Positions 16,320 to 39,486 of a stretch of DNA of 49,378 nt are shown here, piece after piece. This DNA comes from Elusimicrobiota bacterium (GTDB lineage Bacteria; Elusimicrobiota; Elusimicrobia; Elusimicrobiales; UBA9959), in contig DAIENX010000043.1 in the NCBI GenBank assembly GCA_027340875.1, positions 1 through 49,378 of the forward strand, read 5' to 3'. Below the pieces are notes generated by a model. That model had not been told where the DNA came from. It saw only the letters and a program-made list of their open reading frames with translations, and ran no database searches. Position numbers and translations under genes: made by a program. Numbering within the stretch: position 1 is the stretch's first letter; each line of letters starts with the position of its first letter.

Positions 16320-16961
16320 ATGCCAAGAGGCCAGAGGATCTTTTTCGAGAACGCCCATTATCACATAATGGACCGCGGCAACGACCGTGGGACGATCTTT
16401 TCGGACCGTGGGGACAGGGAATACTATTTAGGGTTATTGGCGGATCTCAAGAAGGACTTCGGGGTGTTGCTGCCGGCTTACTCCCTGATGACGAACCACG
16501 TCCACCTCTACATTGTCACCCCCCGCGCGAACCTCGCCGAAGCGATGCACGCTCTCAACAAGGGGTATTCGCAGTATTTCAACAGGAAGCACGCCAAACA
16601 TGGCCACCTGTTCGGCGACCGCTACAAGTACAAGGTCATACAGAGCGACATCTATTCATTAGCGCTGGCGCGATACATTCACCTCAACCCGGTGAAGGCT
16701 GGGCTTGCGACAAAGGCAGAAGACTACGAATGGTCCAGCGCCGCGCAATATCTGGACAGAAAATCCGGACTTGCAGATCCGGGAATCGTACTGGACCCGC
16801 TTTCCGAACGGCGCGAGGACGCTATTGCTATATATATAGCGTTCATGTCCGAACCGCCTGAAAGACTGACGAAGAAGTTCTGGGGGAACTTCGACAAGCA
16901 GCGCAACATGGTCCTTGGCGACCCGGAATTCAAGAAGATCCACTCCCCCCACGGAGATTAA
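16320..16961 (+). mobile_element. Y1 HUH transposase, REP-associated tyrosine transposase (RAYT)-like
   Basis: MPR...YHIMDRGN, MTNHVHL (HUH), GHLFGDRY, YIHLNPVKAG (catalytic Tyr) and YEWSS; flanked by palindromic repeats. Confidence 0.88.
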
Positions 16962-17056: not shown

Positions 17057-17749
17057 TCACTCTTTTTTTATGATGGAGATCTCGATGCGGCGGTTCTTCG
17101 CGCGGCCGTCGGCAGCGGAATTGTCGGCGATCGGCCGGTTATCGCCGTAGCCTATGCCGGCGAGCTGTTTCGACGGGATGCCCTGTCCTTCCATGAACCG
17201 CAGCACGCCGTAGGCGCGGGCCATCGAAAGCTCCCAGTTGGTGGAATATCTGCCCCTTCTTATCGGCACGTTGTCGGTGTGCCCCTCGATGACGATGTCG
17301 TTGGGGACCTTCTTCAGCTCTTCGGCTATCGGAGCCAGCACCTGCCTGGCATGCTCCTTAAGGTCGGCGTCGCCGGAGGCGAAAAGCACGCCTTCCGGCA
17401 GCACCAGCTTCATCTTGTGCTCGTTGGATTGTATCTGCACCAGATCGGCCATGTCGTCCGTTCCCATGGTCTTCTTGAGATTATCCTCCACCTGGGACTC
17501 CTGCTCCTGGGCCTTGGCCCGCTCTATCCGCTGAGAGTCCTCCTTCCCCCCGAACGCCTTTTGAATGTTCCCCAGGGATTCCTCATACTTGCGGCTCTTG
17601 GTCTTGTCCGTCCTCGCTATCGAAAAGGAAAAAAGGACGAGGAAGAATATCATCAGATAGCTCATCAGGTCGCCGTAGGTGACGGCCCACAGCGCCCCTT
17701 TGTTGAGCTGGTTCTCCACCTCGTCGCGTCTCTGCCTGTATACCGCCAT
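17057..17749 (-). CDS. motB: MotB-family stator subunit with OmpA-like peptidoglycan-binding domain
   Basis: WAVTYGDLMSYLMIFFLVL TM helix with the conserved Asp; EGHTDN, NWELSMARA and GRAKNRRIEI. Confidence 0.92.
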   Translation of the reverse strand: MAVYRQRRDEVENQLNKGALWAVTYGDLMSYLMIFFLVLFSFSIARTDKTKSRKYEESLGNIQKAFGGKEDSQRIERAKAQEQESQVEDNLKKTMGTDDMADLVQIQSNEHKMKLVLPEGVLFASGDADLKEHARQVLAPIAEELKKVPNDIVIEGHTDNVPIRRGRYSTNWELSMARAYGVLRFMEGQGIPSKQLAGIGYGDNRPIADNSAADGRAKNRRIEISIIKKE

Positions 17750-17832: not shown

Positions 17833-19350
17833 TCATTTTTCTCCGTTCTCATGCCTCAGCCTGGCAAGATCGGACACCAGCTGGGCTTTTTTTTCGGAGA
17901 TGATCGCGGCTTTTACCTCCAGCTGTTTCACCAGCCTGGCGGCGAACTCTACGTTCTTGCGCACTATCGCGCCGGAAACCCCGAGCAGCACCTCGAGATT
18001 GACACCCTTCAGCGCTTTCATCATGCCGTTGAGTTCCAACGCCAGCCCGGAGATAGCGGACTCCACGGCGGAGACCGCCGATGCGGCGTCGGATATCGCG
18101 GCCCGCCCGGAGGCGGAAGCCTTGAAGACGTTCATGGTCTCCTGCAGCTGCCCGGAAACGGAGGAGCGCAGCCGGGACTCGATCTCTCCCAGCCCGCGGG
18201 AGACCCGCTCGTCAGCGGCTTCGCCCGCCCTTGCTATGTCTCCGGAGAGCTTTTTCGCGCCCTCAGTCATCTCGCCGGAGAGCTTCTCCGCGCCCTCCTT
18301 GATGTCGCCGGAGAGCTTCTCCGCGGCGCCCAGGAATTCCCGCTGGACCTCGGAAACGCCCTGAAGCTGCGCGAGGATGGTCCTTGTGGCGGTATCGAGC
18401 CTTTCCCGGCCCTCCAGAGCGGCGGCGTCCACATGCTTCACGAGGCCTCCGGCCCGCTCCATGGCGTCGTCTATCGTCCTCCGCAGCTCGTCCCGGACAT
18501 CGGTCACCATCTCCTCCAGCCGTTCCTTGCCGGCGAAGGCGCTTATCCCCATCTCCTCGATCTTGGAGGACAGCGACTTCAGCCTGGAATCCACCGCGGC
18601 GGAAAGCTCTCCGATCCGGGATTCCAGCGCGCGGACCTGCCTGGGCGCGGAGGCGGCCTCGGCAGCCACGCTCTTCAAAGCCTCCTCCATGGCCCGGAAC
18701 CTCCCGGCCAGGGCCTCTTGCGCCGCGCCATGCGCCCGCAGCTTCTCCTGCAGTCTGGCATCCAGCACCTTAACCACCGCAGCGGCGATCTCCTCTGCCG
18801 AGACCTGCGGCGCCGGGGGAGGAGGCGGCTCCGGCGGCTTTTTGGAGGCCGCCGCGTACGCCTCCACCAGGCGTTTCTCCATCTCCTCCACCCTGGACCA
18901 GGCCTTCTGCAGCTGGTCATGCATCTGGCGGTCCAGCTCGGAGTACTTCTGCTGCTCCCTCACGACCTTCAGCAGTTCCTCTATCTCGCGCCTGGCGCCG
19001 GCCTTGGATTCCTCGATGTTCTTGGACTGGGCCGCACCCGCCAGCAGGAATTTCTCATGGAACTCCTTCAGCCGCGCCTCCATCTCAGAGATCTTGGACA
19101 GCACGGCAGGCGTCACCGGCGAAGGAGGCATGGCGGGAGGCGGGACCTGCGCGGAAAGCTTCTTCTCCAGCTGCCCGACGATATTGCGCTCCAGCGCTTC
19201 CATCTTCCGGTTAAGCGCGCTCAGCTGCTCGTCGGGGACCGCCGCCCTCGCCGGAGATGGGGGCGGGGCCGCTGGCGTCGGCTGCAGGGACTGATGGTCC
19301 TCGGAATGGAATAATCCGGAGAATAAAGAGCTTTTCTTAGTCGGTTCCAT
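17833..19350 (-). CDS. Cytoplasmic coiled-coil protein with proline-rich linkers (unknown function)
   Basis: GGAGG RBS before ATG 19350; E/K/L/A-rich helical sequence, three Pro-rich stretches, no signal peptide; sits between the rotor-like gene and motB. Confidence 0.75.
   Translation of the reverse strand: MEPTKKSSLFSGLFHSEDHQSLQPTPAAPPPSPARAAVPDEQLSALNRKMEALERNIVGQLEKKLSAQVPPPAMPPSPVTPAVLSKISEMEARLKEFHEKFLLAGAAQSKNIEESKAGARREIEELLKVVREQQKYSELDRQMHDQLQKAWSRVEEMEKRLVEAYAAASKKPPEPPPPPAPQVSAEEIAAAVVKVLDARLQEKLRAHGAAQEALAGRFRAMEEALKSVAAEAASAPRQVRALESRIGELSAAVDSRLKSLSSKIEEMGISAFAGKERLEEMVTDVRDELRRTIDDAMERAGGLVKHVDAAALEGRERLDTATRTILAQLQGVSEVQREFLGAAEKLSGDIKEGAEKLSGEMTEGAKKLSGDIARAGEAADERVSRGLGEIESRLRSSVSGQLQETMNVFKASASGRAAISDAASAVSAVESAISGLALELNGMMKALKGVNLEVLLGVSGAIVRKNVEFAARLVKQLEVKAAIISEKKAQLVSDLARLRHENGEK
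18242..18330. repeat. 33-bp tandem repeat (11-residue AEKLSGD/E units)
   Basis: CCGGAGAGCTT recurs at 18242, 18275 and 18308. Confidence 0.8.
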
Positions 19351-19361
19351 ATCGCCTCCCG

Positions 19362-20888
19362 TCAAGCGCCGGCCTGCTCATTGGCTATCATGGTCCCGGC
19401 CGCGGCGGCAGGATCGGCTATCCTCCCGTCCCTTATCAGCGCGGCGGCCGTCGCCAGTATCCGTTCCAGCGCTTCCTCCACTTTCTCCCTGGACGGCACC
19501 CCGTAGCTCATGCTCTGCTCTATCATCTGCCAGGTCTTGTCGGCCATCTGGGCCTTTATCTTCTGCCTTACCTCATCCGGGAGCTCGAAAAGGGCGGTGG
19601 CCCATTCTTCCGGCTTCACGGTGGTGGCCATCAGTGAAAGCCCCTTCTCGTCGAGGAACGCCAGGTCCTCCGGCATGAGGAGGCGTCGCCGCACTTCCGC
19701 CGCCAACTCAGGATGCTTCTTGCGGAGTTCCTCCAGCATCCCCTTCTTCGCGCGCAGATCTATGGCGGAGATGGCCTCCATCGCGCCGTCCAGACCGCCC
19801 ACCGCCCCGCTGAGGCGGCGCTCCAGCTCCTCTTTGAGCGTGCCGATTATCTCCGGCTCCACGAAACGTATCTTGGCCATGTTTATGACGACGTCGGACG
19901 AGAACTCAGGGGGGAGCGCCTTCAGGAACTCGGCCCGCACCTCCTGCGCCAGATGGGCCGCCACCAGGGCCACGTTGGCGGGGTCCTCCGTTACCATCAT
20001 GTTCACTAGGAACGGCACCTGGGAAGGCCGGATATCGAACAGCACCCTCCCGCTTTCCTCCGGCTCCTCTTTTCCCGGTCCCGTCAGCTGCGGCTTATCC
20101 GGAGAAGCGCCGGCGGCCGACGCCTCGATGCCTCCCGGGGCCGCCCCCTTGCCCAGGTCCATAGTTATCTGGTGACTCTGCTGGACCTTGGCCATCGTGC
20201 TCATCGCTCCGGCCAGCTTGAGGAAACCGACGGCCACGACTATCATGCCTATTATCCCCATCACCGCCAGCAGCACGTACTTCAGGACCATGCTTATCGC
20301 TTCGGGGGTGTACCAGATGGTCCTCCAGAGCGGGGCGAACGGCGCCTTTATCACGGAGAGCTGGTCCCCCCGCTTAGGGTCCAGCATCAGCACCTCGGAG
20401 ACCACGCGGCGTATATTCTCCGCGTCCAGTTCCGGCACGTCCCGGTTCACTATGATGCTGACGTTCATCCTTTTTACGAAGGCCGACGGATAGAGCATCT
20501 GCCTGTTATATGACTTGTTCTCCGTCCCGCCGGCGGCGAACGACGGGAAACCGGGCATCAGGTAATCCCCTGACTGCGCGTCGCCGCCGGCCGCCTGCCA
20601 CTTGAAAGGGTTGCCCTTGTCCTGCTCCAGCTGCGAGCTGACCTCGACCTTTTCGGTGCGGCTGAAGTCCATCACGGTCTCCAGTATCACCTTGGCCTGG
20701 TTCGGCCCCAGCAGCCTCACGAGCACGTCGTCGGCTTTCTGTTCCAGCGTCTTCTCGTACTTGGCCTTATCCTCGAAGGGCAGCGACTGCGCCGTACAGC
20801 GCGGCGCGGTCAGCGGGACCAGCGCTGAGGCCAGCGTCAGGACGACGCGGAAGTCCGGCCATGAATTTATCTTCCTCGGTTTCTCCAT
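19362..20888 (-). CDS. FliF C-terminal ring domain (RBM3)-TM-FliG middle/C-terminal fusion protein
   Basis: N-terminal signal-like segment. LLGPNQAKV...MDFSRTE and VKRMNVSIIVN...DPKRGDQLSVIKAPF resemble FliF RBM3. One TM helix follows. EDPANVALVAAHL (EHPQ-like), GG hinge and LAAEVRRRLLMPEDL (MFxFEDL-like) resemble FliG. Confidence 0.82.
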   Translation of the reverse strand: MEKPRKINSWPDFRVVLTLASALVPLTAPRCTAQSLPFEDKAKYEKTLEQKADDVLVRLLGPNQAKVILETVMDFSRTEKVEVSSQLEQDKGNPFKWQAAGGDAQSGDYLMPGFPSFAAGGTENKSYNRQMLYPSAFVKRMNVSIIVNRDVPELDAENIRRVVSEVLMLDPKRGDQLSVIKAPFAPLWRTIWYTPEAISMVLKYVLLAVMGIIGMIVVAVGFLKLAGAMSTMAKVQQSHQITMDLGKGAAPGGIEASAAGASPDKPQLTGPGKEEPEESGRVLFDIRPSQVPFLVNMMVTEDPANVALVAAHLAQEVRAEFLKALPPEFSSDVVINMAKIRFVEPEIIGTLKEELERRLSGAVGGLDGAMEAISAIDLRAKKGMLEELRKKHPELAAEVRRRLLMPEDLAFLDEKGLSLMATTVKPEEWATALFELPDEVRQKIKAQMADKTWQMIEQSMSYGVPSREKVEEALERILATAAALIRDGRIADPAAAAGTMIANEQAGA

Positions 20889-20913
20889 ATTGTCCACCTT
20901 TGGCGCCTTCCGG

Positions 20914-21651
20914 CTACAGATAGGACTGCAGCCTTCTCTCCACGACCAGCGGCATGCTGCCCTTCATGATCTCCAGCACGCCTTCGAGTATCATGGACTT
21001 CAGCCGCACTTCCATCCATATCCTGGCGCGCATCTTGCCGGCGATGGGCACGCAGACCATGTTGGCGAAGAATATGCCGTAGAACGCCGAGGTTATGGCC
21101 AAGGCCATGGCGGGGCCCACGCTCTCGGGGTTGGAGAGGTCTTTCAGCACGCCTATGATCCCTATGAGCGTGCCGAGCAGGCCGAACATCGGCGCCATCA
21201 CGCCCATGGTCCTGTATACGTTGGCCACCTCGTTCATGTCGTCCACGCCCTGGTTTATCTCCATCTCCAGCACCTCGCGCACGAACTTGTAATCGTTGTA
21301 CTCCAGCGCCGCGGTCGCGGCCCTGTTCAGAAAACCGCCCGCCACTGACGTGGAGGCTTCCTTGAGGGCCGCCAGCCCGCGCATGCGCGACTGTTCCGCC
21401 AGGGAAACTATGACCGGTATCAGCTTCTCAGGGGAGGCCTCGTCCTTCTCCCTGAATATCAGCCCGAGCTCGCGCACGGCCCGGACCACGAACTTAAGCG
21501 GGGTGTTGATCAGCGTGGCGACGACGGTGCCGCCAAGCACCACGACCACCCCGTGCATGTTTATCAGCGAAGCCGAGATCTGGTTGCCGGCGACCCCGGC
21601 GAGTATCAGCCCCGCGGCGCCACAGAAGCCCAACAATGTCGTAATGTCCAT
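20914..21651 (-). CDS. motA: MotA/PomA-family stator subunit
   Basis: MDITTLLG start, VVLGGT, RxxGLAAL, APMFGLLGTLIG, GPAMALA, FYGIFFAN and EGVLEI motifs. Confidence 0.92.
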   Translation of the reverse strand: MDITTLLGFCGAAGLILAGVAGNQISASLINMHGVVVVLGGTVVATLINTPLKFVVRAVRELGLIFREKDEASPEKLIPVIVSLAEQSRMRGLAALKEASTSVAGGFLNRAATAALEYNDYKFVREVLEMEINQGVDDMNEVANVYRTMGVMAPMFGLLGTLIGIIGVLKDLSNPESVGPAMALAITSAFYGIFFANMVCVPIAGKMRARIWMEVRLKSMILEGVLEIMKGSMPLVVERRLQSYL

Positions 21652-21669
21652 TATCTCCTCCGAATCGCC

Positions 21670-22611
21670 CTATACTCCGACCGGCACCTTGAACCAGAAA
21701 GTGGAACCCTTGCCCAGGCCGGGGCTGGTCGCCCCGATGTCCCCGCCGTGCGCGCGCACGACCTCCTGGGCGATGCAGAGGCCGAGGCCCCACCCCTGCT
21801 TACGAAGCTTCTCGTCCTTCTGATACTTGGCCTGGTAGAACTTCTCGAATATCTTCTTGGTCTCGCTGGGATGTATACCTATGCCGGAGTCCTTCACCAG
21901 CGTGTGCACGTACTTGCCTTCCCGCTTGAAGAACACCTCGACCTTCTTGCTCTCGGGAGTGAACTTTATGGCGTTGTTGACCAGGTTCATGAAGACCTGC
22001 GACAGCCGGAACTTGTCGCCGTCCACGATCACCCCCTCCGGGAAATCGTGCGCCACCAGGACCACTCCTTTCTTCTGCGCGTTTATCGACAACCCCGGCA
22101 GGATGTCCCGGGCCATCTCCGGGAACTCGAAAGGCGACTTTTCCATCTTGAGCTTGCCGGCCTCTATCATGGCCAGGTCCGTGAGATCGGAGATCAGCCT
22201 GCCCAGCTGATCGGTGGAGCTGACGATGTTCTTGAGGTACATGGCCTCCCGCTCCCCGACGTTCTTCTTCATCAGCAGCTCGCTGAAGCCCCTGATGGAC
22301 GCCAGCGGCGTGCGCACGTCGTGGACCACCATGGAGAGGAACTTGGACTTCATATCGTTGAGGCGCGCCAGCTCCTGGTTGGACAGCGAAAGCCTGTCCG
22401 ACATGGCCTCCAGCTGCTGCTTGCGCTGGAAAAGCTGTCCCTGGGCGATGGTGATGCGCTCCATGTACTGCTGTATGATCATGTTCGAGAAGTTCTGCCT
22501 GCTGTTGAAGAAAGCCGACTGCATGAAGCCGGACACCTGGGCCACAACGAGGAAGCCCGCCCCCAGCAGCAGCAGGGACATCGGGATAATGACTATCACC
22601 AGCATCTCCAT
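21670..22611 (-). CDS. Membrane-anchored histidine kinase (HisKA + HATPase), no obvious sensor domain
   Basis: N-terminal TM, HDVRTPLASIRG H-box, NLVNNAIKFT, DSGIGI and GLGL. Confidence 0.92.
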   Translation of the reverse strand: MEMLVIVIIPMSLLLLGAGFLVVAQVSGFMQSAFFNSRQNFSNMIIQQYMERITIAQGQLFQRKQQLEAMSDRLSLSNQELARLNDMKSKFLSMVVHDVRTPLASIRGFSELLMKKNVGEREAMYLKNIVSSTDQLGRLISDLTDLAMIEAGKLKMEKSPFEFPEMARDILPGLSINAQKKGVVLVAHDFPEGVIVDGDKFRLSQVFMNLVNNAIKFTPESKKVEVFFKREGKYVHTLVKDSGIGIHPSETKKIFEKFYQAKYQKDEKLRKQGWGLGLCIAQEVVRAHGGDIGATSPGLGKGSTFWFKVPVGV

Positions 22612-22623
22612 AGCTTCTCCGGG

Positions 22624-24336
22624 TCACCAGCCCTGCGTTTCCATGAACTTCCGCGTCACCTGGTCTTCGGGGTTCAGTTGCAGCGCCTTCCGGTAGGCGC
22701 TTTTCGCCTTCTCCTTGTCTCCCATCATGAAGTAGGCCGACCCCAGCCTGGTCCAGCTCACGGGGTTCTCCTCGTCGATAACGGAGACCTCCTCGCATTC
22801 CTTCGCGGCCGAGTCGAACTGCTGGATATAGAACCATTTGGCCGCCTTGCGCAGCTTCTCCTTTATAAGCGCCGTCCTGGGCATTATCTCCCCCCTGCGG
22901 ACCTCCATCTTCACCAGGCCGGCCGTTAAATACAGGTATTCCTCGAACAGGGGATCCCCGCGCAGGTCGGCGCCGAGCGCCGCATGGGCCAGCAGGAACG
23001 CCTTGAGGTCCTTGCCCTCCAGATAGGCGTCGATGGACTGCGCCGCGGTATCGGACTGTTCCGTCCGCCGGGAAAGGAGGGTCTCCCGGGACGGGATATC
23101 CTTCAGCCTCAGTCCGGAGATGATCTCGTCCAGGCGCTTCTCACGCCTTCCCCAGTCACCCTCCCGGAGGTTCGGCTCCAGGTTGAACGCTTTCTTGATA
23201 TTGGCGGAAGCCGAGACATAGCGGCGGGCCTCCAGGTCCTTGCGGGCCAGCTCCAGGAAATCCCTGGCGAAGAGCCCGAGCTTCTCTATCTTCTCCTTGG
23301 GGGCGATGAGCTTGGCATTTCGCACCCGCTTCGTGGCGCCGGCCAGAGGCTGCGCCGCCATCTGGGACCCGAGGCGCATGGAGACCCCTATCTTATGCAT
23401 GGCCCCCAGCTCGCCGAACGGCGACATCGAATAGTCTATATCCATCAATGAGAGCCTGAAGCCCACCCCGAAACGGACCCCGGAGCCCATCTGCTGGCCG
23501 GTGCGGTAGCCTGCCCTGAGGGAGAGCAGCTGGAAGGCCACGTATTCCGCTCCGAGCGAAGCGTAATACTTCTCGTCGTTGGAGAAGGTCTGGTCGAGGC
23601 TCAGGATCAGGCTGGCGCTCCCGCCGGGATGGGACACCCACGCCCCTCCGACGGTGGCGGACAGCGGCAGCGGGGATGAGCGCCGGTCGAACTTGAGGCC
23701 GGGGCCGATGTTCCGGACCGCCGCCGCTACGCGCAGCTCCTGGGCCGGCACTTTGCTCATCCAATACTTCGCCGGGCGTATATAGTAAACCGCCCCCAGG
23801 TCCAGGGCGGCGGTATCGGCCGCCGCGCTGTCGAGCTTTTCGCTTATGTACTTCAGCCCCGCCCCGACGTTAAGGACAGGGCGCTCGATCTCGTCCTTGA
23901 GCAGCGCGCGTCCGTACGCGGCGCCGATCGCCAGGTCCGAAGAGGCGACCTTGCCCGTCTTGACCCCCTGCGCGTCGTACCCCTGGAAAGGGGAGACGCT
24001 CAGGCGCGTCACGTTCACTCCCAGCGTGGAGCCGTAGCGCAGCGGATACGCGGCGGAGAGGTACTGCTGGGAGACGTCCTGCAGGGAATCGTTATAGGTC
24101 GCCGCCAGCTGCGCCGCCTCCACGCTGGCCAGCCCGGCCGGATTCCACCATGGCGAGTAGGCGTCCTCGGAAACCGAGGTGTAGGCTTCGCCCATGCCGG
24201 TACCTCGGGGGCTGGGCGAGAACTTCAGGAACGAGGCCGCCGCCGAGCCGGCGCTCCCGGCGCAGACGGGGAGACGGCAAAGCAGCGCCGTAAGGAATAC
24301 GGCAGCGGCAGCAGTTCCGCGGGTTCCTCTATTCAT
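22624..24336 (-). CDS. PorV/PorQ-family outer-membrane barrel with C-terminal TPR region
   Basis: Signal peptide, then FLKFSPSPRGTGMGEAYTSVSEDAYSPWWNPAGLA (PorV/FadL-like N-terminus), barrel strands ending HKIGVSMRLG, then helical/TPR repeats (WTRLGSAYF...ALQLNP). Confidence 0.8.
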   Translation of the reverse strand: MNRGTRGTAAAAVFLTALLCRLPVCAGSAGSAAASFLKFSPSPRGTGMGEAYTSVSEDAYSPWWNPAGLASVEAAQLAATYNDSLQDVSQQYLSAAYPLRYGSTLGVNVTRLSVSPFQGYDAQGVKTGKVASSDLAIGAAYGRALLKDEIERPVLNVGAGLKYISEKLDSAAADTAALDLGAVYYIRPAKYWMSKVPAQELRVAAAVRNIGPGLKFDRRSSPLPLSATVGGAWVSHPGGSASLILSLDQTFSNDEKYYASLGAEYVAFQLLSLRAGYRTGQQMGSGVRFGVGFRLSLMDIDYSMSPFGELGAMHKIGVSMRLGSQMAAQPLAGATKRVRNAKLIAPKEKIEKLGLFARDFLELARKDLEARRYVSASANIKKAFNLEPNLREGDWGRREKRLDEIISGLRLKDIPSRETLLSRRTEQSDTAAQSIDAYLEGKDLKAFLLAHAALGADLRGDPLFEEYLYLTAGLVKMEVRRGEIMPRTALIKEKLRKAAKWFYIQQFDSAAKECEEVSVIDEENPVSWTRLGSAYFMMGDKEKAKSAYRKALQLNPEDQVTRKFMETQGW

Positions 24337-24474: not shown

Positions 24475-24567
24475 TCACAGACCGCGCGCCAGCAGGTAGC
24501 AGCTGATCGCGGAGAAGACCAGCAGGAGAGCTATGACCGCCCTGTCCCAGAGATCACGGCGTTCCAT
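24475..24567 (-). CDS. 30-aa single-TM small protein
   Basis: MERRDLWDRAVIALLLVFSAISCYLLARGL; ATG overlaps the stop of the upstream receiver gene (TGATG). Confidence 0.45.
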   Translation of the reverse strand: MERRDLWDRAVIALLLVFSAISCYLLARGL

Positions 24568-24956
24568 CAGCGCTGCCCCAGCACCTCTCCGGCCTTCTCC
24601 AGGACCTTTTCGGGAGGGATCATCTTAGGGAAGTAGCAGACGAAGCCCGGAGTGGACGAGAAGACGGTGTTCAGGCCGGCGTCCATGAAGTTTTCGCCGG
24701 TCATCACCACGAAACGCACGCCGCGCAGCCCGGGATCGGCGGCGGCGCGGCGCTTGAGCTCGATGGCGAACTCCTTGCCGGACATCACCGGCATGGCGAC
24801 GTCCAGCACGATGAAGTCTGGCTTGTCGGATACCACCGACGCCATAGCCTCCTTTCCGTTCTTGGCGAGCGCCACCGCGTAGCCGGCGTCCTCGAAGACG
24901 TAGCGGAAGAGTTCCAGTATGGCCGTCTCGTCGTCGACTATAAGCACTTTAGGCAT
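24567..24956 (-). CDS. Single-domain response regulator (CheY-like receiver)
   Basis: VLIVDDE, PDFIVLDVAMPVMSG, VMTG and FPK. Confidence 0.9.
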   Translation of the reverse strand: MPKVLIVDDETAILELFRYVFEDAGYAVALAKNGKEAMASVVSDKPDFIVLDVAMPVMSGKEFAIELKRRAAADPGLRGVRFVVMTGENFMDAGLNTVFSSTPGFVCYFPKMIPPEKVLEKAGEVLGQR

Positions 24957-26334
24957 CTTTTCGGGCCTCCGGTATCGTGAACGTGAATTTGCTGCCTTTC
25001 CCCTCCTGGGACTCGAGCGATATGTCCCCCCCATGGAGCTCCACGGCCATCTTGCACATGGCCAGCCCCAGGCCGAAACCCATGTATTTGTGCTCCTCCA
25101 GCTGGGAATACTTATCGAAGACCTCCTTATGCCTGTCCGGGGGTATCCCGGGTCCCGTGTCGGACACCGAGAACACCACCGTCCCGGCCCCGCCGCCGCA
25201 GGAGAGGATCACCCTGCCGCCCGACGGGGTGAACTTCAGGGAGTTACCGACCAGATTGCTTATCACCCTTTCCAGCAGACGTCCGTCCCCCTTGAAAGGC
25301 AGCGGGCCGGGGGCCGCCGGGGCAGAGAGAGCTATGTTCTTGCGCGCGGCCAGCGGCTCATAGAGCTCGAAGACGCGCCCGCACAGGGCATTGGCGTCAA
25401 GCTCCTCCGTAGAAAGCTTCATGTCGCCCTTCTCCAGCTTTATCGTGTTCAGGATATCCTCTATCATCCCGTTAAGGCGTACCGAGGAGTTCATGATGGC
25501 GTGCAGACATTTGCCGGACCTGGCGGAGAGCGGCAGGTCCTTCTCCAGCAGCTGGGCATAGCCCTGTATGCTGGTCAGCGGGGCGCGCATGTCATGGGTG
25601 ATCATGTGGAAGAAGGTCTCCCGGGCGCTCTCGATCTCCTTTTCCACGGTAACGTCCCTTATGACTATCACGCGGCCAGGCCGCTTGAACGCGGCCATCT
25701 GGAACTGCCGGGACATCACCCGGTAATCGCGCTCTACCGGGGAGCCCTGCCCGGAACCCAGCACGGCCACCTCCGCCTTGACGTAGTTGTCGGAAGAATC
25801 CATCAGGGCGGCGAGCACGGGGCGGAAGGGCTCCTCTCCTACGGAAGCGGGAAGGGAGATGTCCTGCTCCTCCTCCGGAACTTTCAGCACTTTCAGCGCC
25901 AGCTTATTGGAATGGATAAGCCTGCCCCTGTCGTCCACCAGCAGGATGGCGTCGCTGATGGTCTCGATCAGGGCCTGAGCCTTCGCGCGCTCCTCGACTA
26001 CCTGGTTCAGATGGAAGGCCCTGTAGGCGCTCAATTCCAGCATCAGCCGGTTCAGCGACGAAATAAGCTCGGCCGTTTCCGGCCAGCCCGTCTTAGGAAG
26101 CGGCGAGGCCAGCTTATAATCGGAGGTCCTGAAGGACTTCACCGTCTCCGACATGTTCTCCAGGGGCCGCCCCATGCCGCGCAGGACCGCCCGGACCGAG
26201 AAAAAGGACGCAAGAACGGCCGCGGCGGCCGCCGCGTAGCCGGCGCCGCCGGAGGAGCTCCACAGCGCGAAGACCGCCAAAGGAGCGGCGGCGGCGGCCG
26301 TGATGGTGAGCGATAGGCGGAAATTCAGCTTCAT
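24949..26334 (-). CDS. Histidine kinase (2 TM, HAMP, PAS, HisKA, HATPase)
   Basis: HDMRAPLTSIQG, NLVGNSLKFT, DTGPGI, GFGLGL; PAS-like ISDAILLVD...VIRDVT. Confidence 0.93.
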   Translation of the reverse strand: MKLNFRLSLTITAAAAAPLAVFALWSSSGGAGYAAAAAAVLASFFSVRAVLRGMGRPLENMSETVKSFRTSDYKLASPLPKTGWPETAELISSLNRLMLELSAYRAFHLNQVVEERAKAQALIETISDAILLVDDRGRLIHSNKLALKVLKVPEEEQDISLPASVGEEPFRPVLAALMDSSDNYVKAEVAVLGSGQGSPVERDYRVMSRQFQMAAFKRPGRVIVIRDVTVEKEIESARETFFHMITHDMRAPLTSIQGYAQLLEKDLPLSARSGKCLHAIMNSSVRLNGMIEDILNTIKLEKGDMKLSTEELDANALCGRVFELYEPLAARKNIALSAPAAPGPLPFKGDGRLLERVISNLVGNSLKFTPSGGRVILSCGGGAGTVVFSVSDTGPGIPPDRHKEVFDKYSQLEEHKYMGFGLGLAMCKMAVELHGGDISLESQEGKGSKFTFTIPEARKDA

Positions 26335-26361
26335 TCGAACGTTCTCCTGAATGCTCCGGGC

Positions 26362-26394
26362 ATTATACCTCGGACGCGGCCGGGAAATCCCGAA
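26362..26394 (-). promoter_or_regulatory. Island promoter motif copy 2
   Basis: TTCGGGATTT-N17-TATAAT upstream of the kinase gene. Confidence 0.75.
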
Positions 26395-26418
26395 AGCCGC
26401 TACGGCAGGAGGCCTGGT

Positions 26419-26784
26419 TCAGCCCAAGAAGGAAAGCATCTCTGACACACAGGACAGAAGTTCCTCGGACCTTACCGGTTTTTTGAAGAGGCGGACCCTC
26501 CCATGCGCCCGGAGAAACGGTTCGACGCGCTCTGGCAGGCCGGTGACGAAAATGACAGGGACGCCGCTTTTGAGTATTTCACGGGTTATCATGAACACCT
26601 GCTCCCCCCCGCCGCCGGGCATTTCGGCGTCCAGGATGACCAGGTGCGGCTTGAGCTCCAGGAAGATCATCATCGCGGCCGTCGCGTCCGGGGCGATCAG
26701 CACCTCGTAGCCCGCTTCCTGCAGCAGGGCCTTGTAGTACTCGGTCAGGGCCGGGTCGTCATCCACCGCGAGTATCCGCTTCAT
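26419..26784 (-). CDS. Single-domain response regulator
   Basis: ILAVDDD, PHLVILDAEMPGGGG, FVTG and KKP. Confidence 0.9.
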   Translation of the reverse strand: MKRILAVDDDPALTEYYKALLQEAGYEVLIAPDATAAMMIFLELKPHLVILDAEMPGGGGEQVFMITREILKSGVPVIFVTGLPERVEPFLRAHGRVRLFKKPVRSEELLSCVSEMLSFLG

Positions 26785-27149
26785 CGACGCGGCCTCCCGT
26801 CGAAGCGGGAGATCTCCCGCGCTATCCGGCCGAAATCGAACGGCTTGGGCAGCACCGGGATCTCCCGCGGGATGCCCATATCCGCCAGTTCCGCCGCCGA
26901 GGCTCCGGAAATTATCATCACGGCTATCCCGGCAAGGGCCGGGTACATGTCCATCATGGCTATCATGGAACTTCCCGACATCAGCGGCATGTGCAGATCG
27001 GTGATAATCAGGTCCGGCCGGTCCGACAGGGCCATCTTCACCAGTTCCTCCCCGTTGGGGGCGCTTCGCGTTTCGTGACCGAGCTCCGTCACGAAGTCGG
27101 TCAGCAGCGCTCTAAGCAGTTCGTCGTCTTCAGCGATGAGTATCTTCAT
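26781..27149 (-). CDS. Single-domain response regulator
   Basis: ILIAEDD, PDLIITDLHMPLMSG, IISG and PKPF. Confidence 0.9.
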   Translation of the reverse strand: MKILIAEDDELLRALLTDFVTELGHETRSAPNGEELVKMALSDRPDLIITDLHMPLMSGSSMIAMMDMYPALAGIAVMIISGASAAELADMGIPREIPVLPKPFDFGRIAREISRFDGRPRR

Positions 27150-28785: not shown

Positions 28786-31506
28786 TCAGTATTTCCTTAT
28801 GGCCCGCGGCCCGAAGACGGTGTTCACGCGTATTTTGGAGGCGTTCGGATCGTCTATATCAGTGAGGACCACTCCGTAAACGGAAGGCGCCTTGTAGACG
28901 CGCAGCTGGGAATTCAGATTTTCGGGTTTCTCGCAGGCGAGCTGCACAACGGCGGAACCGTCGTAATACTTCAACCCGCAGGCGCTGGTGTAATCCGGCA
29001 GCGGGCCGATGTACCCGGAGGTTGAGACCACCACTTCGTCGTAATAAGCGGTCTGCTGGAACGAGGCAGCGGAAGCCCAGCCCAGTCCCAGATAAAAATC
29101 GCTCCAGTAGCCCGCGTCGGAAATATTGGCATTGGGGACCGAAGCCGTAAGCGAACCGTTCACGTACAGGTTCGCCGTGACGGCCGCACCGGTGGCGGGG
29201 ACCAGCACTTCTATGGAATTCCACACGCCGGTGGCCACATAGGTGTTATAATCGCCGGGCCAGAGGTCGGCGGTATCGTTGAACTCAAGCCCCAGCCGCT
29301 GCTGGCCGGACGCGTTTTTCTGAACATAAAGCGAGACCGAGCAGGGCTGGCTATTGCCGCTGTTGCAAAGCTGGTTGGAACCGGCCATCTCCATGACCAC
29401 CCTGCTCTGGCCGTTGGACATGGCCGTGAAAAAATTGCCGCCCAGATACAGATAGAACCGCGCGTACGCCGAGGCAGGGAGGTTGACGTTCTTCACCAAC
29501 AGCGCGTCCGGCTGGGTGGCGCTGACGTCGTCGCATTTCAGGGAGGCCTTCGTCCTGAAGGCCATGGAGGTGGAGACGGTCACGCTGTTGGCGCCGCCGC
29601 CGTCCCATTCGGCATCCCATACGCCCATGGGCGAATCCGTCACGAGCGTGCTGTTATTGGGACGGTTGAAATCGTCCACCAGATATTTCGGCGCGCTCAG
29701 GCCTATGAAGTTGGCAGAGTTCGGCATTCCGTCCTGCAGATAGGAGGGGTTGACCGACAAGGCGTAAACCGTGGCGTTGGACTGCAGGGAAGTGTTGAGC
29801 GATACGGTGCGGAAATCGTCCTCGATGACGGCGGAATTGACGGTGAGCGGCGGATAGAAGGAATAGGTCGCCGTGTTCTGCCACTGCGGCTCGTTCGGGG
29901 AGACCGCGCGGTCGTAATACACCTTAACGGTGTTCGGAGCCGTGGCGGAGGCGTAGACCATGTATGGCTTCTCTATCTGGCCTATATACGTGAGCGACGA
30001 GACCACCACCTCGTCGTAATACAACCCGCGCTGCTCGGGGCCGAGGGGATTAATGTCGTTCCAGCCTTCCAGGCCGATGTAAAAATGGCGCCAGCTCACC
30101 GTTCCCATCGCCCCGACTATATTAGCTATGCGGTTGCCGTTGAGCCAGGCCTTGAGCGGCGCCGAGGCGCTGGGGGTGGAAATATATATTTCAAGGCAGT
30201 TCCACCTGTCCGGGGTTATAGGGATATTGCCGCCATAAGTGGCGCTGTTGGCCTCCAGGTAACCCATAGGCGCGCCTGCCACCTTGGTCAGGTGGAAGGC
30301 GACGTTCTTGGTGTAACCATTATTGTCGATAGTGGTTATTTTCTGGTCATAGCCGTTGCCGACCGCGCTGAAGAACCGGCTCGGGGCGTAGAAATAGAGC
30401 CTGTAATAGGCCTTGGTCAGCCTGGTGGGGGTGGTATAGAAGAGCCCGGCGTGGATACCGGCCGGACCGCCGGGAGAGCCGCTTTCTATGACTGGCATGG
30501 TGGAGGCGTCCATGACGAAAAGCGAGGAGTCGCCGTACAACCTGGTGGCGGTGGAAAGCGCCAGCCAGTTGCCGGGGGCCAGGTCGTTCCAGGTCCAGGA
30601 CGCGCCCGGCACGTCGGTAGTCACTATGGACTGGCCCTCGCGGTTGAAATTGTCCATGAACACGGAGTGCTCGCTGAAGCCTATGAAGTCTGCCGTATTA
30701 TTGGATCCCAGAACCGCTCCGTTCGCGCCGGAGACAGTATTGACCGTGAGAGTGTAGGTGGTGTTATGCGCCAGCGCGGAGGCCAGCTTCAGCTGCACCA
30801 CCCGGTTATTGTCCCTGCGCGCGGCGCTGGCCACCGTAAGCGCCGGGGACAGGGAATAATTCCCGGCGGTATCGCCTGCGGCGCCTACAGGCACGTTAAA
30901 ACCCACCCGCACCGTGTCGGAACTTATGATATCCACGCCCAGCACTTTCAATTCCGTCTCTTTCCGGGCGTAGATATTGTCCACCTCCATCCAGCCCGGC
31001 ACCGGAGCAGGAAGGGCAAAGGACACGTAATACACCGCGGTGCTCTGCGTAGCGGTGAAATAATCGGAAATAGGGACGTTGAAGCGCGTAAGACCGCCAG
31101 TGGGAAGGCTCTCCGCCGACCAGGAGTTAAGCGTTCTGTCGACGGTGGCGCCGCTGCCGCGCTTCAGCCGCAGCGACATGTTGAGCGCGGCGCTGCTGCC
31201 GCGGAAATCGAAGCTGATATAGTCATAACCGGAAAGGTCGTAGCCGCTGGTCCCGGAGGTGAGCGTGCTGTAGTAATAATCCCCGTTGGCGTCCCAGGTG
31301 GAACGCAGCACCCCTCCGGAGCAGGAAATGGCCTGCATCGTGCCGTCGTCGCCTGCCGGGGCGCCGAGATTATCCGGCGTGCACAGCCCGCTGGAGAAAT
31401 CCTGTATCAGCAGGTCGGCGGCCAAGGCCCCGCGCGGGGCGCAAACTCCGGCCGCCAACAACAGCGCCGCCGGCAAAAAAAGCCAGCCGCAGCCTTTCGC
31501 CTCCAT
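28786..31506 (-). CDS. Large secreted protein: CBM-like domain plus two (Ig-like + jelly-roll/lectin-like) units
   Basis: Signal peptide; DLSGYDYISFDFRG...EVDNI (CBM-like); two Ig-like segments; two units starting DNFNR/DDFNR and ending YYDEVVVS...YIG. Confidence 0.7.
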   Translation of the reverse strand: MEAKGCGWLFLPAALLLAAGVCAPRGALAADLLIQDFSSGLCTPDNLGAPAGDDGTMQAISCSGGVLRSTWDANGDYYYSTLTSGTSGYDLSGYDYISFDFRGSSAALNMSLRLKRGSGATVDRTLNSWSAESLPTGGLTRFNVPISDYFTATQSTAVYYVSFALPAPVPGWMEVDNIYARKETELKVLGVDIISSDTVRVGFNVPVGAAGDTAGNYSLSPALTVASAARRDNNRVVQLKLASALAHNTTYTLTVNTVSGANGAVLGSNNTADFIGFSEHSVFMDNFNREGQSIVTTDVPGASWTWNDLAPGNWLALSTATRLYGDSSLFVMDASTMPVIESGSPGGPAGIHAGLFYTTPTRLTKAYYRLYFYAPSRFFSAVGNGYDQKITTIDNNGYTKNVAFHLTKVAGAPMGYLEANSATYGGNIPITPDRWNCLEIYISTPSASAPLKAWLNGNRIANIVGAMGTVSWRHFYIGLEGWNDINPLGPEQRGLYYDEVVVSSLTYIGQIEKPYMVYASATAPNTVKVYYDRAVSPNEPQWQNTATYSFYPPLTVNSAVIEDDFRTVSLNTSLQSNATVYALSVNPSYLQDGMPNSANFIGLSAPKYLVDDFNRPNNSTLVTDSPMGVWDAEWDGGGANSVTVSTSMAFRTKASLKCDDVSATQPDALLVKNVNLPASAYARFYLYLGGNFFTAMSNGQSRVVMEMAGSNQLCNSGNSQPCSVSLYVQKNASGQQRLGLEFNDTADLWPGDYNTYVATGVWNSIEVLVPATGAAVTANLYVNGSLTASVPNANISDAGYWSDFYLGLGWASAASFQQTAYYDEVVVSTSGYIGPLPDYTSACGLKYYDGSAVVQLACEKPENLNSQLRVYKAPSVYGVVLTDIDDPNASKIRVNTVFGPRAIRKY

Positions 31507-36911: not shown

Positions 36912-36957
36912 ATTACCGACCTTCACCCCGCCGCCGGATATTTTTAAAACGAATGGC

Positions 36958-36990
36958 ATTATAGCTGAAACCTCCGCCGAGAATCCCGAA
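36958..36990 (-). promoter_or_regulatory. Island promoter motif copy 4
   Basis: TTCGGGATTC-N17-TATAAT upstream of the giant fibre gene. Confidence 0.78.
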
Positions 36991-36993
36991 GCG

Positions 36994-38409: not shown

Positions 38410-38513
38410 AAAGCCGGTATCCGGCTCTACGCCCCGCTAAATTCCCGGCCCCTCCCGCAACTTCCACCGGGCCTATTCCCGGCGGACCATAAGGAGGAGC
38501 ATGAACCTGCTTC

Positions 38514-39440
38514 TTATTTCTTCTTTATCCAGGCCGCCAGCGAGCCGCCGGAATAGAACTTGGCGGCGTAGTTGCCTGAGGTTCCCACGCTGTCCACGGA
38601 GAGGGCCACTCCGGCCTCTACCGCCCTGTTCATCGCGTGGGTGTCCGTCACCGCGTTGCCCAGCTGCGCGTTGCCGTTGACGGTAAGGTCGTTGGTGACG
38701 GCGGCGTTCCCGCCGGTAACGGACAGTCCGTTCTGGGCCGTCAGCGCGCCTACGGCGGTTATGGCGTCTCCGGCCGCGTCGCCCAGGTTCACGTTGCCGG
38801 TGAACTTGGCGGCGCCATTGACCCCCAGACCGTCGGTACCGTCGCCGAGTATGGTCATGGACGAGCCGCTGACCATGGTTATGTTGGTGGCCCCGGCGTT
38901 CTGTATGAACTGGGAATCCACCAGGCCGGTGCCGGCCGCGTTCACCATCTGCAGACGGTAGGGACTGCCCAGCGAGGCGAGGCCGGTGTTATCGGTCTCC
39001 CAGGTAAGGAAGCCGTTGGCCGAAGCCTTAAGCACCTTGCCCGCGTTGGCCGCGCCGTAGTCGAAGTACAGGTTGGTCAGCGCGCCGGCGTTGTTCATGA
39101 ACTGCACCGTGCTCTTTAGCACGCCGTAGCCCTGCAACTCCACCGCCTGCGTGAAGGTGGAACTGCCGGCCACGTACATTCCGCTGGATACCTGCACGTA
39201 CCCGTTGGCGAATATGTTGCCGGGAGCCACCGGAATACCGAGCGCCGGGGCGGACTGGGTGGACCCGAAGACCGTGAAGCCCTTCACCTCCAGGTCCGGG
39301 TCCAGCGCCGTTCCGCCGGTGCCGAGCACGGTGAGGTCGTCCTCTACTCCGAACTCCGTACCATTGTCCGCGGCTTGCGCCAGACGGCCCGCCGCCGCGA
39401 CGCATACCAGGGCAATAATCACTTTCGTTGCCTTCTTCAT
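38514..39440 (-). CDS. Secreted fibre-like protein
   Basis: AGGAGG RBS, signal peptide, N-terminal domain closely similar to that of the giant protein, G/T/N-rich beta repeats. Confidence 0.78.
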   Translation of the reverse strand: MKKATKVIIALVCVAAAGRLAQAADNGTEFGVEDDLTVLGTGGTALDPDLEVKGFTVFGSTQSAPALGIPVAPGNIFANGYVQVSSGMYVAGSSTFTQAVELQGYGVLKSTVQFMNNAGALTNLYFDYGAANAGKVLKASANGFLTWETDNTGLASLGSPYRLQMVNAAGTGLVDSQFIQNAGATNITMVSGSSMTILGDGTDGLGVNGAAKFTGNVNLGDAAGDAITAVGALTAQNGLSVTGGNAAVTNDLTVNGNAQLGNAVTDTHAMNRAVEAGVALSVDSVGTSGNYAAKFYSGGSLAAWIKKK

Positions 39441-39486
39441 ACTCCCTCCTTAGCAATTACAGGGATAGCGGAACTTCCGCCATCCC

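Follow-up and report, generated by a model that had tools for sequence, protein, structure and literature searches.

The contig DAIENX010000043.1 of the Elusimicrobiota bacterium assembly GCA_027340875.1 (Elusimicrobia; Elusimicrobiales; UBA9959), of which positions 1 to 49,378, counted in nucleotides (nt), are called the window below, carries on its minus strand six adjoining genes. In transcriptional order they encode an outer-membrane β-barrel protein, a histidine kinase, a MotA-type stator subunit, a protein in which parts of FliF and FliG are joined, a coiled-coil protein and a MotB-type stator subunit. Successive genes are separated by 12, 18 and 16 nt, overlap by 4 nt and are finally 83 nt apart, and all six frames have the high third-position G+C content of coding sequence from the same genome. 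The fourth gene, with which this report is mainly concerned, is one open reading frame (19362..20897, minus strand; 511 amino acids (aa) from a GTG) for an RBM3-transmembrane (TM)-FliG_MC fusion protein. A reading made from the sequence alone (the sequence-only reading) had described it as a natural single-chain minimal rotor that could be turned by MotAB and that held neither a type III export gate nor a FliM switch. The uninterrupted frame stood, and the start was placed differently: position 20888, which had been taken as the start, is an ATG at codon 4 of a frame that opens at the GTG at 20897. A Shine-Dalgarno-like hexamer precedes each candidate start (GGAAGG 8 nt ahead of the GTG, AGGTGG 5 nt ahead of the ATG). 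The motifs on which the sequence-only reading relied were all recovered (LLGP at residues 62-65, DFSRTE at 77-82, KRMNVSIIVN at 142-151, RGDQLSV..PF at 176-189 and EDPA at 304-307). The layout it had proposed, namely a signal-like N-terminus, a FliF-RBM3-like part, one TM helix, a low-complexity linker and FliG-M/C, agrees with Pfam, hydropathy and the AlphaFold2 (AF2) model (mean predicted local distance difference test (pLDDT) 74), and YscJ_FliF_C, FliG_M and FliG_C each exceed their curated cut-offs.

The chain begins with a hydrophobic segment at about residues 15-35 (20793..20855, minus strand), recognized in the sequence and the alignment, which ends in an AxA-Q site and may be either a signal peptide or a first TM helix; hydropathy and direct reading place a weaker hydrophobic stretch at 18-29, with the AxA-Q site after it. 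This site is retained also in homologues that carry a fused kinase (see below), in which the segment must cross the membrane because the kinase on one side of it is cytoplasmic and the domain on the other side periplasmic. The periplasmic domain itself (residues 37-190; 20328..20789, minus strand) was assigned to the FliF RBM3 type by Pfam, profile search, AF2 and structural alignment with VIA-align. PF08345 (YscJ_FliF_C) matches residues 137-187 with 33.4 bits (cut-off 23.8), covering profile positions 93-147 only. A profile of 41 family members (A1), searched against all sequences of the PDB, spans both RBM3 halves: it matched four FliF sequences with E values of 2e-6 to 1.5e-3, residues 38-76 aligning with positions 269-307 of Vibrio FliF and residues 132-180 with positions 382-439 of Salmonella FliF. 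The AF2 model has an alpha-beta-beta-alpha-beta fold (helix 42-63, strands 68-87 and 129-150, helix 156-169, strand 179-184), into which a loop (89-127) is inserted that is modeled with low confidence and contains conserved FKW and YLxPGFP motifs.

As the sequence-only reading had proposed, this domain is nearest to FliF RBM3. VIA-align gave Z scores of 12.7-13.1 and root-mean-square deviations (rmsd) of 2.5-3.7 Å over 97-106 residues against Salmonella FliF 231-438 and Vibrio FliF 259-452, and lower Z scores for other ring-building motifs (PrgK 9.5, EscJ 8.6, SpoIIIAG 8.3, FliF RBM2 8.2). Similarly, Foldseek searches with the fusion model returned FliF S-ring/RBM3 structures at E values of about 1e-5 (target-normalized TM-score (TMt) 0.5-0.58) and SpoIIIAG at 0.017. 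The injectisome proteins PrgK and EscJ and the sporulation-ring proteins SpoIIIAG and SpoIIIAH share the same fold (Z 8.0-9.5) but are neither joined to FliG nor paired with MotAB. In the flagellum, RBM3 builds the S-ring of the MS-ring. RBM1 and RBM2, reported as missing by the sequence-only reading, are indeed absent, as PF01514 (YscJ_FliF) gives no match in the fusion at E ≤ 1.

The sole strong TM segment of the fusion (208-226) is the core of an AF2 helix (198-248) that runs on as a juxtamembrane cytoplasmic helix to about residue 248 (20154..20306, minus strand; hydropathy, AF2 and alignment), and alignment columns 224-246 are nearly invariant. It is followed by a low-complexity tether (about residues 249-290; 20028..20153, minus strand) that is predicted to be disordered, with pLDDT values below 50 over 244-282 and no folded domain between 248 and 291, and that varies in length and sequence among homologues. 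The C-terminal tail of FliF, which co-folds with FliG_N, is not found in the chain, in which the helix to about 248 and the tether lead directly into FliG_M. The tether thus occupies the place of both the tail and FliG_N.

The cytoplasmic half comprises a FliG middle domain (residues 291-365; 19803..20027, minus strand) with EDPA in place of EHPQ, and the FliG Gly-Gly hinge and C-terminal domain with its torque helix (K454 ... E460; 19413..19802, minus strand), both assigned by Pfam and VIA-align. FliG_M (PF14841) matches residues 297-365 with 50.0 bits (cut-off 25), and FliG_C (PF01706) residues 389-493 with 59.9 bits (cut-off 23.3). The A1 profile aligned with FliG_MC of Thermotoga maritima (1lkv) at an E value of 8e-39, and the 21 PDB sequences that it reached at E ≤ 1 were FliG or FliF in 18 cases and LarA in three (E 0.23), with none from MgtE. 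The AF2 model places the FliG helices at 291-489, and FliG_MC took the top rank in Foldseek (E 1e-11). In VIA-align, Z scores were 16.5 for whole FliG_MC, 12.3-12.6 (rmsd 1.7-2.0 Å) for FliG_M of FliG-FliM complexes, and 11.4 (rmsd 1.6 Å over 87 residues) for FliG_C bound to MotAB (8ucs). The hinge glycines G367 and G368 are invariant, and G364 is, like them, among the positions that are nearly invariant or invariant overall. K454 occupies the position equivalent to R281 of Escherichia coli FliG by profile alignment and is retained in 51 of 58 orthologue rows.

The N-terminal domain of MgtE, an all-helical fold distantly related to FliG, was tried as another identity for this half and rejected, since MgtE_N (PF03448), with 20.8 bits, stayed below its cut-off of 25.9, and a membrane or channel domain of MgtE is lacking; the MgtE match in Foldseek had an E value of 0.2, compared with 1e-11 for FliG. 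As a separate observation, the placement of the M and C domains relative to each other in the AF2 model (287-510) is much nearer to clockwise-state Salmonella FliG (8umx, 8wiw; rmsd 5.0-5.7 Å over 214-216 residues), and counter-clockwise-state chains (8umd, 9n49, 8wo5) fit worse (rmsd about 15 Å). The clockwise-like placement may be a modeling accident.

The possibility that two genes were joined by faulty assembly or gene calling has a negligible probability, nothing having been found in its favor. The frame is free of stops, and a word-index search for homologues returned 159 proteins, of which all 120 listed are 487-579 aa long and combine PF08345, PF14841 and PF01706; these 120 are 48-74% identical to the fusion and have an intact frame, and those whose names include an organism all come from Elusimicrobia. 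The same architecture recurs in 68 related loci of other assemblies, which were collected in a scan of genome collections (fusion identity 36-74%) and in which neighbors were sought by tblastn with six window proteins. Contigs of sequencing runs of one study, three of which may be the source of this DNA, cross the junction without gaps or joints: a single record covers 19000-21800 in one (X1), and single records cover the whole fusion frame in two others (X2 and X3). Because the architecture is common to all listed homologues and contigs span the junction, misassembly is excluded. The sequence-only reading had named in advance three findings that would speak against it, namely a lack of RBM3 likeness, a match to MgtE-N and a misassembled junction; each was looked for, and none was encountered. 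Members of the family are named in databases ‘FliG C-terminal domain-containing protein’, ‘flagellar motor switch protein FliG’ or ‘hypothetical protein’.

The adjoining stator genes are of flagellar type. The MotA/PomA-type A subunit (20914..21651, minus strand; 245 aa; PF01618 78.2 bits) has four TM helices, seen as four hydrophobic helices by hydropathy, and a large cytoplasmic loop. It aligns over its full length with solved flagellar MotA and PomA proteins (E 8e-35 to 3e-20), and all ten PDB sequences found at E ≤ 0.01 are MotA or PomA, with no ExbB or TolQ among them. The best NCBIfam model is PomA, with 162.7 bits against 24.3 for TolQ, although the protein stays below every NCBIfam equivalog cut-off (341 for PomA; nearest is PRK09109, with 155.6 bits against 237). 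In 61 aligned rows, the loop charges R89, K/R97, E/D98 and D100 are retained in 45, 58, 48 and 58 cases, respectively, this copy having a serine at position 100. R89 is equivalent to R90/R88 in the PomA alignment, and K/R97 stands where PomA has E96. The MotB-type B subunit (17057..17749, minus strand; 230 aa) has a TM helix with Asp27, a plug and an OmpA-type peptidoglycan-binding domain; MotB_plug scored 46.2 bits (cut-off 24) and OmpA 74.7 bits, the best PDB matches are MotB chains (E 1e-31), and the channel residue Asp27 is retained in 50 of 50 aligned orthologues. According to a study of stator evolution, whose text makes no mention of Elusimicrobia, the plug and the torque-generating loop distinguish flagellar stators (the ‘FIT’ clade) from generic ExbB/TolQ-like transporters (mBio 2025, PMC12505986). 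A role in defense as a Zorya system was rejected: PADLOC gave no ZorA match for MotA, only a generic ZorB/MotB match for MotB, and no other system. Within the MotA gene, at position 21102, the window has an A where the contigs of all four public runs have a C, which is the sole difference.

The first conserved gene of the module (22624..24336, minus strand; 570 aa) encodes a PorV/PorQ-family outer-membrane beta-barrel (about residues 75-322) connected by a disordered linker to a C-terminal helical TPR domain (350-567). It scored 162 bits with the PorV/PorQ model NF033709 (cut-off 90) and 24.9 bits with Pfam PorV (cut-off 27). Its AF2 model (pLDDT 83.6) was most similar in Foldseek to chain F, which we take to be PorV, of the type IX secretion system (T9SS) translocon entries 8gl6 (E 4e-16, TMt 0.69) and 6h3i (E 9e-15, TMt 0.73), with FadL next at 2e-7. 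The second gene (21670..22611, minus strand; 313 aa) encodes a small membrane histidine kinase (HisKA 66.7 bits, HATPase_c 87.4 bits) with one N-terminal TM helix, at residues 5-23 by hydropathy, and no sensor domain. The gene that follows the fusion, and whose start overlaps its stop by 4 nt (17833..19365, minus strand; 510 aa), encodes a cytoplasmic coiled-coil protein for which Pfam (all below cut-off), NCBIfam and the ESM Atlas gave generic coiled-coil matches only; no TM helix was found in it.

This gene set is largely conserved. Among the 68 related loci, 61 are titled Elusimicrobia or a sub-taxon and seven ‘bacterium’ only. Of the 68, 60 gave a match to MotA, 59 to the kinase, 53 to the PorV-TPR protein, 51 to MotB and 38 to the coiled-coil protein, the homologues of the last being 23-53% identical. 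Most loci have the same order as the window, barrel-kinase-MotA-fusion-coiled coil-MotB, and the most distant ones (36-41% identity) read barrel-kinase-fusion-(about 1.1 kb)-MotA-MotB. MotA is missing from eight loci, seven of which are cut by a contig end.

The host genome, assembled in 112 contigs, is 92.45% complete. In this 92%-complete assembly no matches were found to FHIPEP/FlhA and FliP or to FliMN_C, so that the absence of a type III export gate and of a FliM switch held genome-wide, nor were any found to YscJ_FliF (PF01514) or Flagellin_N; the same family searches were positive in four of 14 control genomes, namely E. coli, Bacillus subtilis, Caulobacter vibrioides and T. maritima. 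The genome nevertheless holds five FliG_C-bearing open frames, four of them above cut-off, six MotA-family genes, and at least three modules of similar plan, that is, this one and at least two more. In one (contig C76, 36039-43265; L011:4040-11266), a protein with a sorting domain is followed by a PorV-like/TPR protein, a kinase with HAMP, a fusion of 484 aa and a coiled-coil protein with HATPase_c, and a MotA and MotB pair lies about 4.5 kb further along on the opposite strand. Another (C30:648-8481; L012) has the terminal part of a gene for a PorV-TPR protein and genes for a FliG-TPR form of 646 aa, a coiled-coil protein of 813 aa, MotA and MotB. In a further set (C63:51306-60941; L089), genes for a type A sorting-domain protein of 1537 aa and a TPR protein are joined by two for MotB-like proteins and one for MotA. 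The MotA scores on contigs C30 and C81 are the same, and a single locus may be represented here in duplicate.

In a sample of 301 Elusimicrobiota genomes from 97 genera, the N-domain of the fusion is present in 82 genomes and 54 genera, and MotA of this type (counted at E ≤ 1e-25), with one to five copies per genome, in 112 genomes and 70 genera; FlhA is found in six genomes of five genera. The fusion and this MotA type have the same distribution over families: in families f2 and f14, which have mostly small genomes of about 1-2 Mb, the fusion is found in 0 of 88 and 0 of 89 genomes, MotA in 1 of 88 and 0 of 89, and FlhA in 0 of 88 and 0 of 89. At least 83 fusion-type places have a MotA place within 12 kb on the same contig, in a count by eye that includes weak and distant matches. 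A phmmer search with residues 30-250 against 1.84 billion representatives returned 169 proteins at E ≤ 1e-3, 31 of them at E ≤ 1e-30, and a Pfam scan was made of 37 relatives chosen by length and rank from the 150 listed. FliG_M and/or FliG_C were present in 31 of the 37. Seven are kinase fusions, six of them HisKA-HATPase_c-RBM3-TM-FliG and one (P0129) a kinase with RBM3 and without a FliG domain; seven have a TPR tail, four are true FliF (PF01514 and PF08345), one joins RBM3 to a MacB periplasmic domain, and 18 are further proteins with FliG_M and/or FliG_C, whether or not a FliF_C match was detected.

It might be supposed that such a module is a decaying, functionless remnant of a lost flagellum, as FlhA is missing from 295 of the 301 genomes and present in six. 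This is very improbable, indeed close to refuted, given the intact frame, three shared Pfam domains and 48-74% identity of the 120 listed homologues, a family alignment with 18 invariant and about 100 nearly invariant columns, the several paralogous modules per genome, and the occurrence of the N-domain in 54 of the 97 genera. Furthermore, one genome, G242, the only one sampled that has FlhA (853 bits) plus a fusion-type match, carries a module of its own (L092, C40:4000-18000) with genes for a TPR protein, a 575-aa fusion, MotA, two MotB proteins and a receiver-GGDEF protein. Since FlhA and the module coexist in that genome, the module is a system in its own right rather than a flagellar leftover. 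The receiver-GGDEF protein hints at a link to cyclic di-GMP.

Together, sequence and structure prediction support the presence of a module in which the rotor-stator core of the flagellum stands alone, is fused and has other partners, and to that extent the sequence-only reading, which had noted neither the conserved six-gene set nor the paralogous modules nor the kinase-fused forms, is upheld; assembly of the fusion into a ring and its turning by MotAB would be the inferred consequences. With the domain identities, missing flagellar parts, gene linkage and phyletic pattern observed, the fusion is, on a modest balance of probability, the rotor subunit of a flagellum-independent ring driven by MotAB. 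The module resembles the flagellar motor's core in RBM3, the FliG M and C domains, the Gly-Gly hinge and, at least in part, the charges of the torque helix, and flagellar stators in its four-TM MotA of PomA length and its MotB with channel Asp, plug and OmpA domain. What has gone are the parts for export (RBM1/2 and the gate), for mounting FliG (FliF tail and FliG_N) and for switching (EHPQ and FliM/N). Because the retained parts are those that build a ring and receive and generate torque, a ring of fused subunits under MotAB is the simplest reading; because RBM1/2, export gate, rod and FliM/FliN are absent, such a ring would neither secrete nor turn a filament.

In this mechanism, many copies of the fusion would assemble through RBM3 into an inner-membrane ring, setting a crown of FliG_C torque helices beneath the membrane, with the covalent tether replacing the FliF tail and FliG_N as the mount for FliG. 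PomA-like MotA5MotB2 units, whose genes lie on both sides of the fusion gene, would be held to peptidoglycan by the OmpA domain of MotB and gated by its plug. Ions would pass the invariant Asp27, and the stators would push FliG_C and thereby cause relative movement between ring and stators.

The differences from a flagellum are considerable. There, FliF and FliG are two polypeptides, and the FliF ring has about 33-34 subunits and houses the export gate (FlhA, FliPQR), whereas the fusion is a single polypeptide without RBM1/RBM2, FliF C-tail or FliG_N, in a host genome without matches to export-gate, switch and filament families, and it has a PorV-type barrel, a kinase and a coiled-coil protein for partners. 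Close precedents are engineered FliF-FliG fusions of Salmonella and Vibrio (PDB 8z4d/8z4g), which likewise form one covalent chain; a 945-residue Vibrio fusion chain matches the A1 profile at an E value of 3e-21. These join full-length FliF to full-length FliG in a complete flagellum, while the natural fusion is about half as long and lacks RBM1/2 and FliG_N. According to the accessible text of one report, an engineered FliF-FliG fusion still forms rings (mBio 2024, PMC11481574).

Several findings weigh against a MotAB-driven ring. The domain FliG_N, noted as absent in the sequence-only reading, is missing (PF14842 19.6 bits, cut-off 25, on residues 308-373 in the FliG_M region). The EHPQ motif of T. 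maritima FliG aligns with EDPA at 304-307, a replacement that had also been pointed out, and the counterpart of its MFVF, at the MFXF position of flagellar FliG, reads LLMP. The acidic pair is shifted: the positions of E. coli D288/D289 are Q461/S462, and the conserved acid E460 (52 of 58 rows) lies one position earlier. MotA has K/R at the position of E. coli E98. With 83.2 bits against a cut-off of 226.7, the fusion is no member of the NCBIfam equivalog TIGR00207 (FliG), and through its missing RBM1/2 it falls short of FliG/FliF membership as well. In one related locus (L023), which contains genes for the fusion, the kinase and the PorV protein, MotA and MotB were not found within 8 kb. The absence of flagellar genes is read from a 92%-complete assembly in 112 contigs, no rod, filament or periplasmic shaft to be turned was identified, and the presence of a kinase on every subunit in some lineages would fit a signaling scaffold equally well.

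The roles of EHPQ and of the charges on the torque helix and the MotA loop are known from the flagellar literature; in E. coli, D288/D289 meet R90 of MotA. Since the acidic pair is shifted and MotA has K/R at the E98 position, the rotor-stator interface, if it is kept, would have been rewired. Charges of both signs are nonetheless conserved on both candidate faces, the residues of the MotA loop and the FliG helix being retained in a pattern that differs from that of E. coli. Similarly, the equivalent of the FliM site is altered yet still constrained, as E304, D305, P306 and the following A are retained in 47, 47, 51 and 36 of 58 orthologue rows and N308 in all 58. These considerations bear on another explanation, in which the RBM3 and FliG folds serve assembly or anchoring only and the module is a static membrane scaffold, for instance a platform, tethered to peptidoglycan, on which the coiled-coil protein is mounted, and generates no torque. 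The loss of the FliM-binding EHPQ and the MFXF-type hinge, the Q and S at the D288/D289 positions and the lack of an identified driven element would all suit it. Yet such a scaffold is distinctly improbable, as the channel Asp of MotB is kept in every aligned orthologue next to a gating plug, MotA is PomA-like over its full length, and the charges on both candidate interface helices are conserved, a constraint not expected of a passive anchor.

As to what a MotAB-driven ring might do, the conserved partners, which are a PorV-type barrel with TPR domain, a sensor-less kinase and a coiled-coil protein, suggest that the envelope is where the work is delivered or sensed, with two-component signaling as the read-out. 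A signaling role is favored by the kinase, and chiefly by the forms in which it is fused to the rotor protein. The kinase-fused proteins (P0129, P0130, P0133, P0138, P0144, P0147 and P0177) are about 790-850 aa long, P0129 and P0177 appearing truncated, and open frames of this form, 821-956 aa, were found in eight genomes of families f5 and f7 (G144:C5, G092:C5, G291:C1, G072:C42, G234:C49, G190:C11, G295:C33 and G267:C123). Since kinase and rotor parts are joined in one frame, the kinase sits on the rotor protein itself in these lineages. The module could thus be mainly a sensor, in which contact between MotAB and the FliG ring reports ion-motive force, envelope state or load to the kinase and on to receivers, motion being only the input. 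Besides the in-frame fusions, this explanation can draw on the kinase belonging to the core set of genes (59 of 68 loci), on the HATPase_c domain in the coiled-coil protein of the C76 paralogue, and on the receiver-GGDEF gene at the end of the G242 module. It can also draw on three single-domain receivers and a second kinase, of 461 aa, directly upstream of the module in the window (24567-27149, minus strand). This receiver-receiver-kinase-receiver set was not counted as core because it is syntenic in close relatives only. Moreover, an apparatus with a stator anchored to peptidoglycan, a periplasmic domain of the ring-building type and a partner in the outer membrane is heavy for sensing, and the charges of the torque helix are conserved. 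Sensing as the main function is therefore regarded as unlikely.

The PorV-type barrel, the nearby sorting-domain proteins and a weak prediction of contact between the TPR domain and the ring argue for a role at the outer membrane or in surface-protein handling. In complex predictions, the TPR tail (345-570) paired with the periplasmic domain of the fusion (36-196) at a score of 0.42 (runs 0.40, 0.43 and 0.42), compared with 0.00 for the best of three controls, with at least 51% agreement of contacts between runs and partner pLDDT values of at least 51. Among solved complexes, 116 of 157 attain the mark used for such predictions, as do two of 215 mismatched pairs; at scores of 0.60 or less it is attained by only 18 of the 157, and by both mismatched pairs that pass. 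The predicted interface lends weak support to a contact between the TPR tail and the periplasmic domain of the rotor.

GldLM/PorLM are ion-driven inner-membrane motors of the MotA/ExbB superfamily that are linked to outer-membrane PorV-family proteins. The first gene of the present module is also of the PorV/PorQ family, but the putative rotor has no sequence relation to GldM, and the stator is of flagellar type with plug and peptidoglycan anchor. The module might drive a T9SS-like system for surface proteins or gliding, as a functional analog of GldLM/PorLM that is made of flagellar components and acts through the PorV/PorQ-TPR protein on sorting-domain cargo. In favor of this stand the 162-bit PorV/PorQ barrel as first conserved gene, with a structure nearest to the T9SS translocon partner, and the weakly supportive TPR prediction. 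The cargo side is represented by a CHU_C/T9SS-type sorting-domain protein immediately ahead of the C76 module and by the 1537-aa type A sorting-domain protein that adjoins the MotAB set on C63. In the window, a same-strand array upstream (28786-40587, minus strand) encodes two giant proteins, one of 906 aa with Big_5 and one of 1817 aa that fell into no family, and three proteins of 308-471 aa; the last of these three (366 aa) ends the series with a sorting domain of T9SS type A (27.3 bits with TIGR04183, cut-off 23).

Traits of a T9SS are also found elsewhere in the genome. A 1784-aa SprA/Sov-like open frame on contig C14 (47514-52868, minus strand; L090:2514-7868) scored 135 bits with TIGR04189 (cut-off 200), and there are ten T9SS-type sorting-domain-like tails and six PorV-like genes, several of the latter lying directly next to genes with such tails (C52, C104 and C91). 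GldK reached 44 bits against a cut-off of 350. SprA_N (PF14349), GldL and GldM had no match in the genome, but the control genomes were equally silent. In the literature searched, no earlier description of a T9SS-like system in this phylum was found. SprA-like open frames of about 1750-1950 aa were detected in 256 of the 301 genomes, all of them below the family cut-off; they are present in 86 of the 88 f2 genomes, where the fusion is found in none and this MotA in one. The translocon-like protein hence does not need this motor. Furthermore, the 906-aa giant, the only array member looked for in the related loci, is not syntenic there, and the other PorV-like genes adjoin cargo genes of their own without motor genes. 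A motor of a T9SS-like system is thus rather improbable.

The main proposal, a free-standing RBM3/FliG ring turned by MotAB, can be combined with these partners in a more detailed scheme: the periplasmic face of the ring would engage the PorV-TPR protein and move, load or release sorting-domain proteins, while the kinase would read the state of the motor. Taken as a whole, this scheme is speculative and unlikely to hold in every step.

To our knowledge, neither FliG nor the MotAB/PomAB stator is known other than as part of the flagellum. Non-flagellar uses of 5:2 MotAB-like motors, the AglRQS/Glt gliding motor of Myxococcus and ZorAB of Zorya, are listed in a published account (PMC12204202). 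Their A subunits are TolQR-like or of ZorA type and have no FliG partner. A preprint on magnetotactic members reports that free-living Elusimicrobiota have no flagellar structural genes and carry numerous homologs of motAB, flbD and fliG, whose role is unclear (10.1101/2022.07.08.499144, 2022). In the literature searched, which did not cover supplements of bioRxiv preprints, no description of an RBM3/FliG fusion, its operon or its partners was found, and the papers on FliF-FliG fusions concern, in their accessible text, engineered Salmonella and Vibrio proteins.

It has long been asked how a rotor-stator pair that generates torque could arise around a secretion system. The conserved module indicates that a ring domain, torque receivers and a stator can be maintained alone, without gate, rod, switch or filament. 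If the proposed mechanism is true, this would be the first FliG-MotAB rotor-stator pair acting outside a flagellum, and it would either derive from the flagellar core by exaptation or be a relative, still extant, of a rotor that preceded the flagellum. With one rotor protein and two stator proteins, the module would also offer a much smaller object for structural and biophysical work on torque generation, and it points to an undescribed envelope machine, tied to PorV-type proteins and two-component signaling, in a poorly known phylum.

Some further features of the window may be added. The upstream array is followed by an OmpR-type regulator (40689-41375). Rfam at gathering score found two tRNAs only in the window, and no cyclic di-GMP riboswitch. 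Between 16000 and 29000, five promoter-like sites were counted against 3.0 ± 1.6 in shuffled sequence, and 14 terminator-like sites against 11.0 ± 3.4, neither count being an informative excess. Between MotB and the gene for the isoleucyl-tRNA synthetase IleRS lies an IS200-like Y1 transposase gene (16320-16961, plus strand). A homologue (41-60% identity) is located beside IleRS in five related loci (L037, L038, L045, L061 and L065) and beside MotB at the end of another (L034). As the same position in several loci is unusual for a mobile element, this suggests that the transposase copy is fixed and perhaps domesticated.

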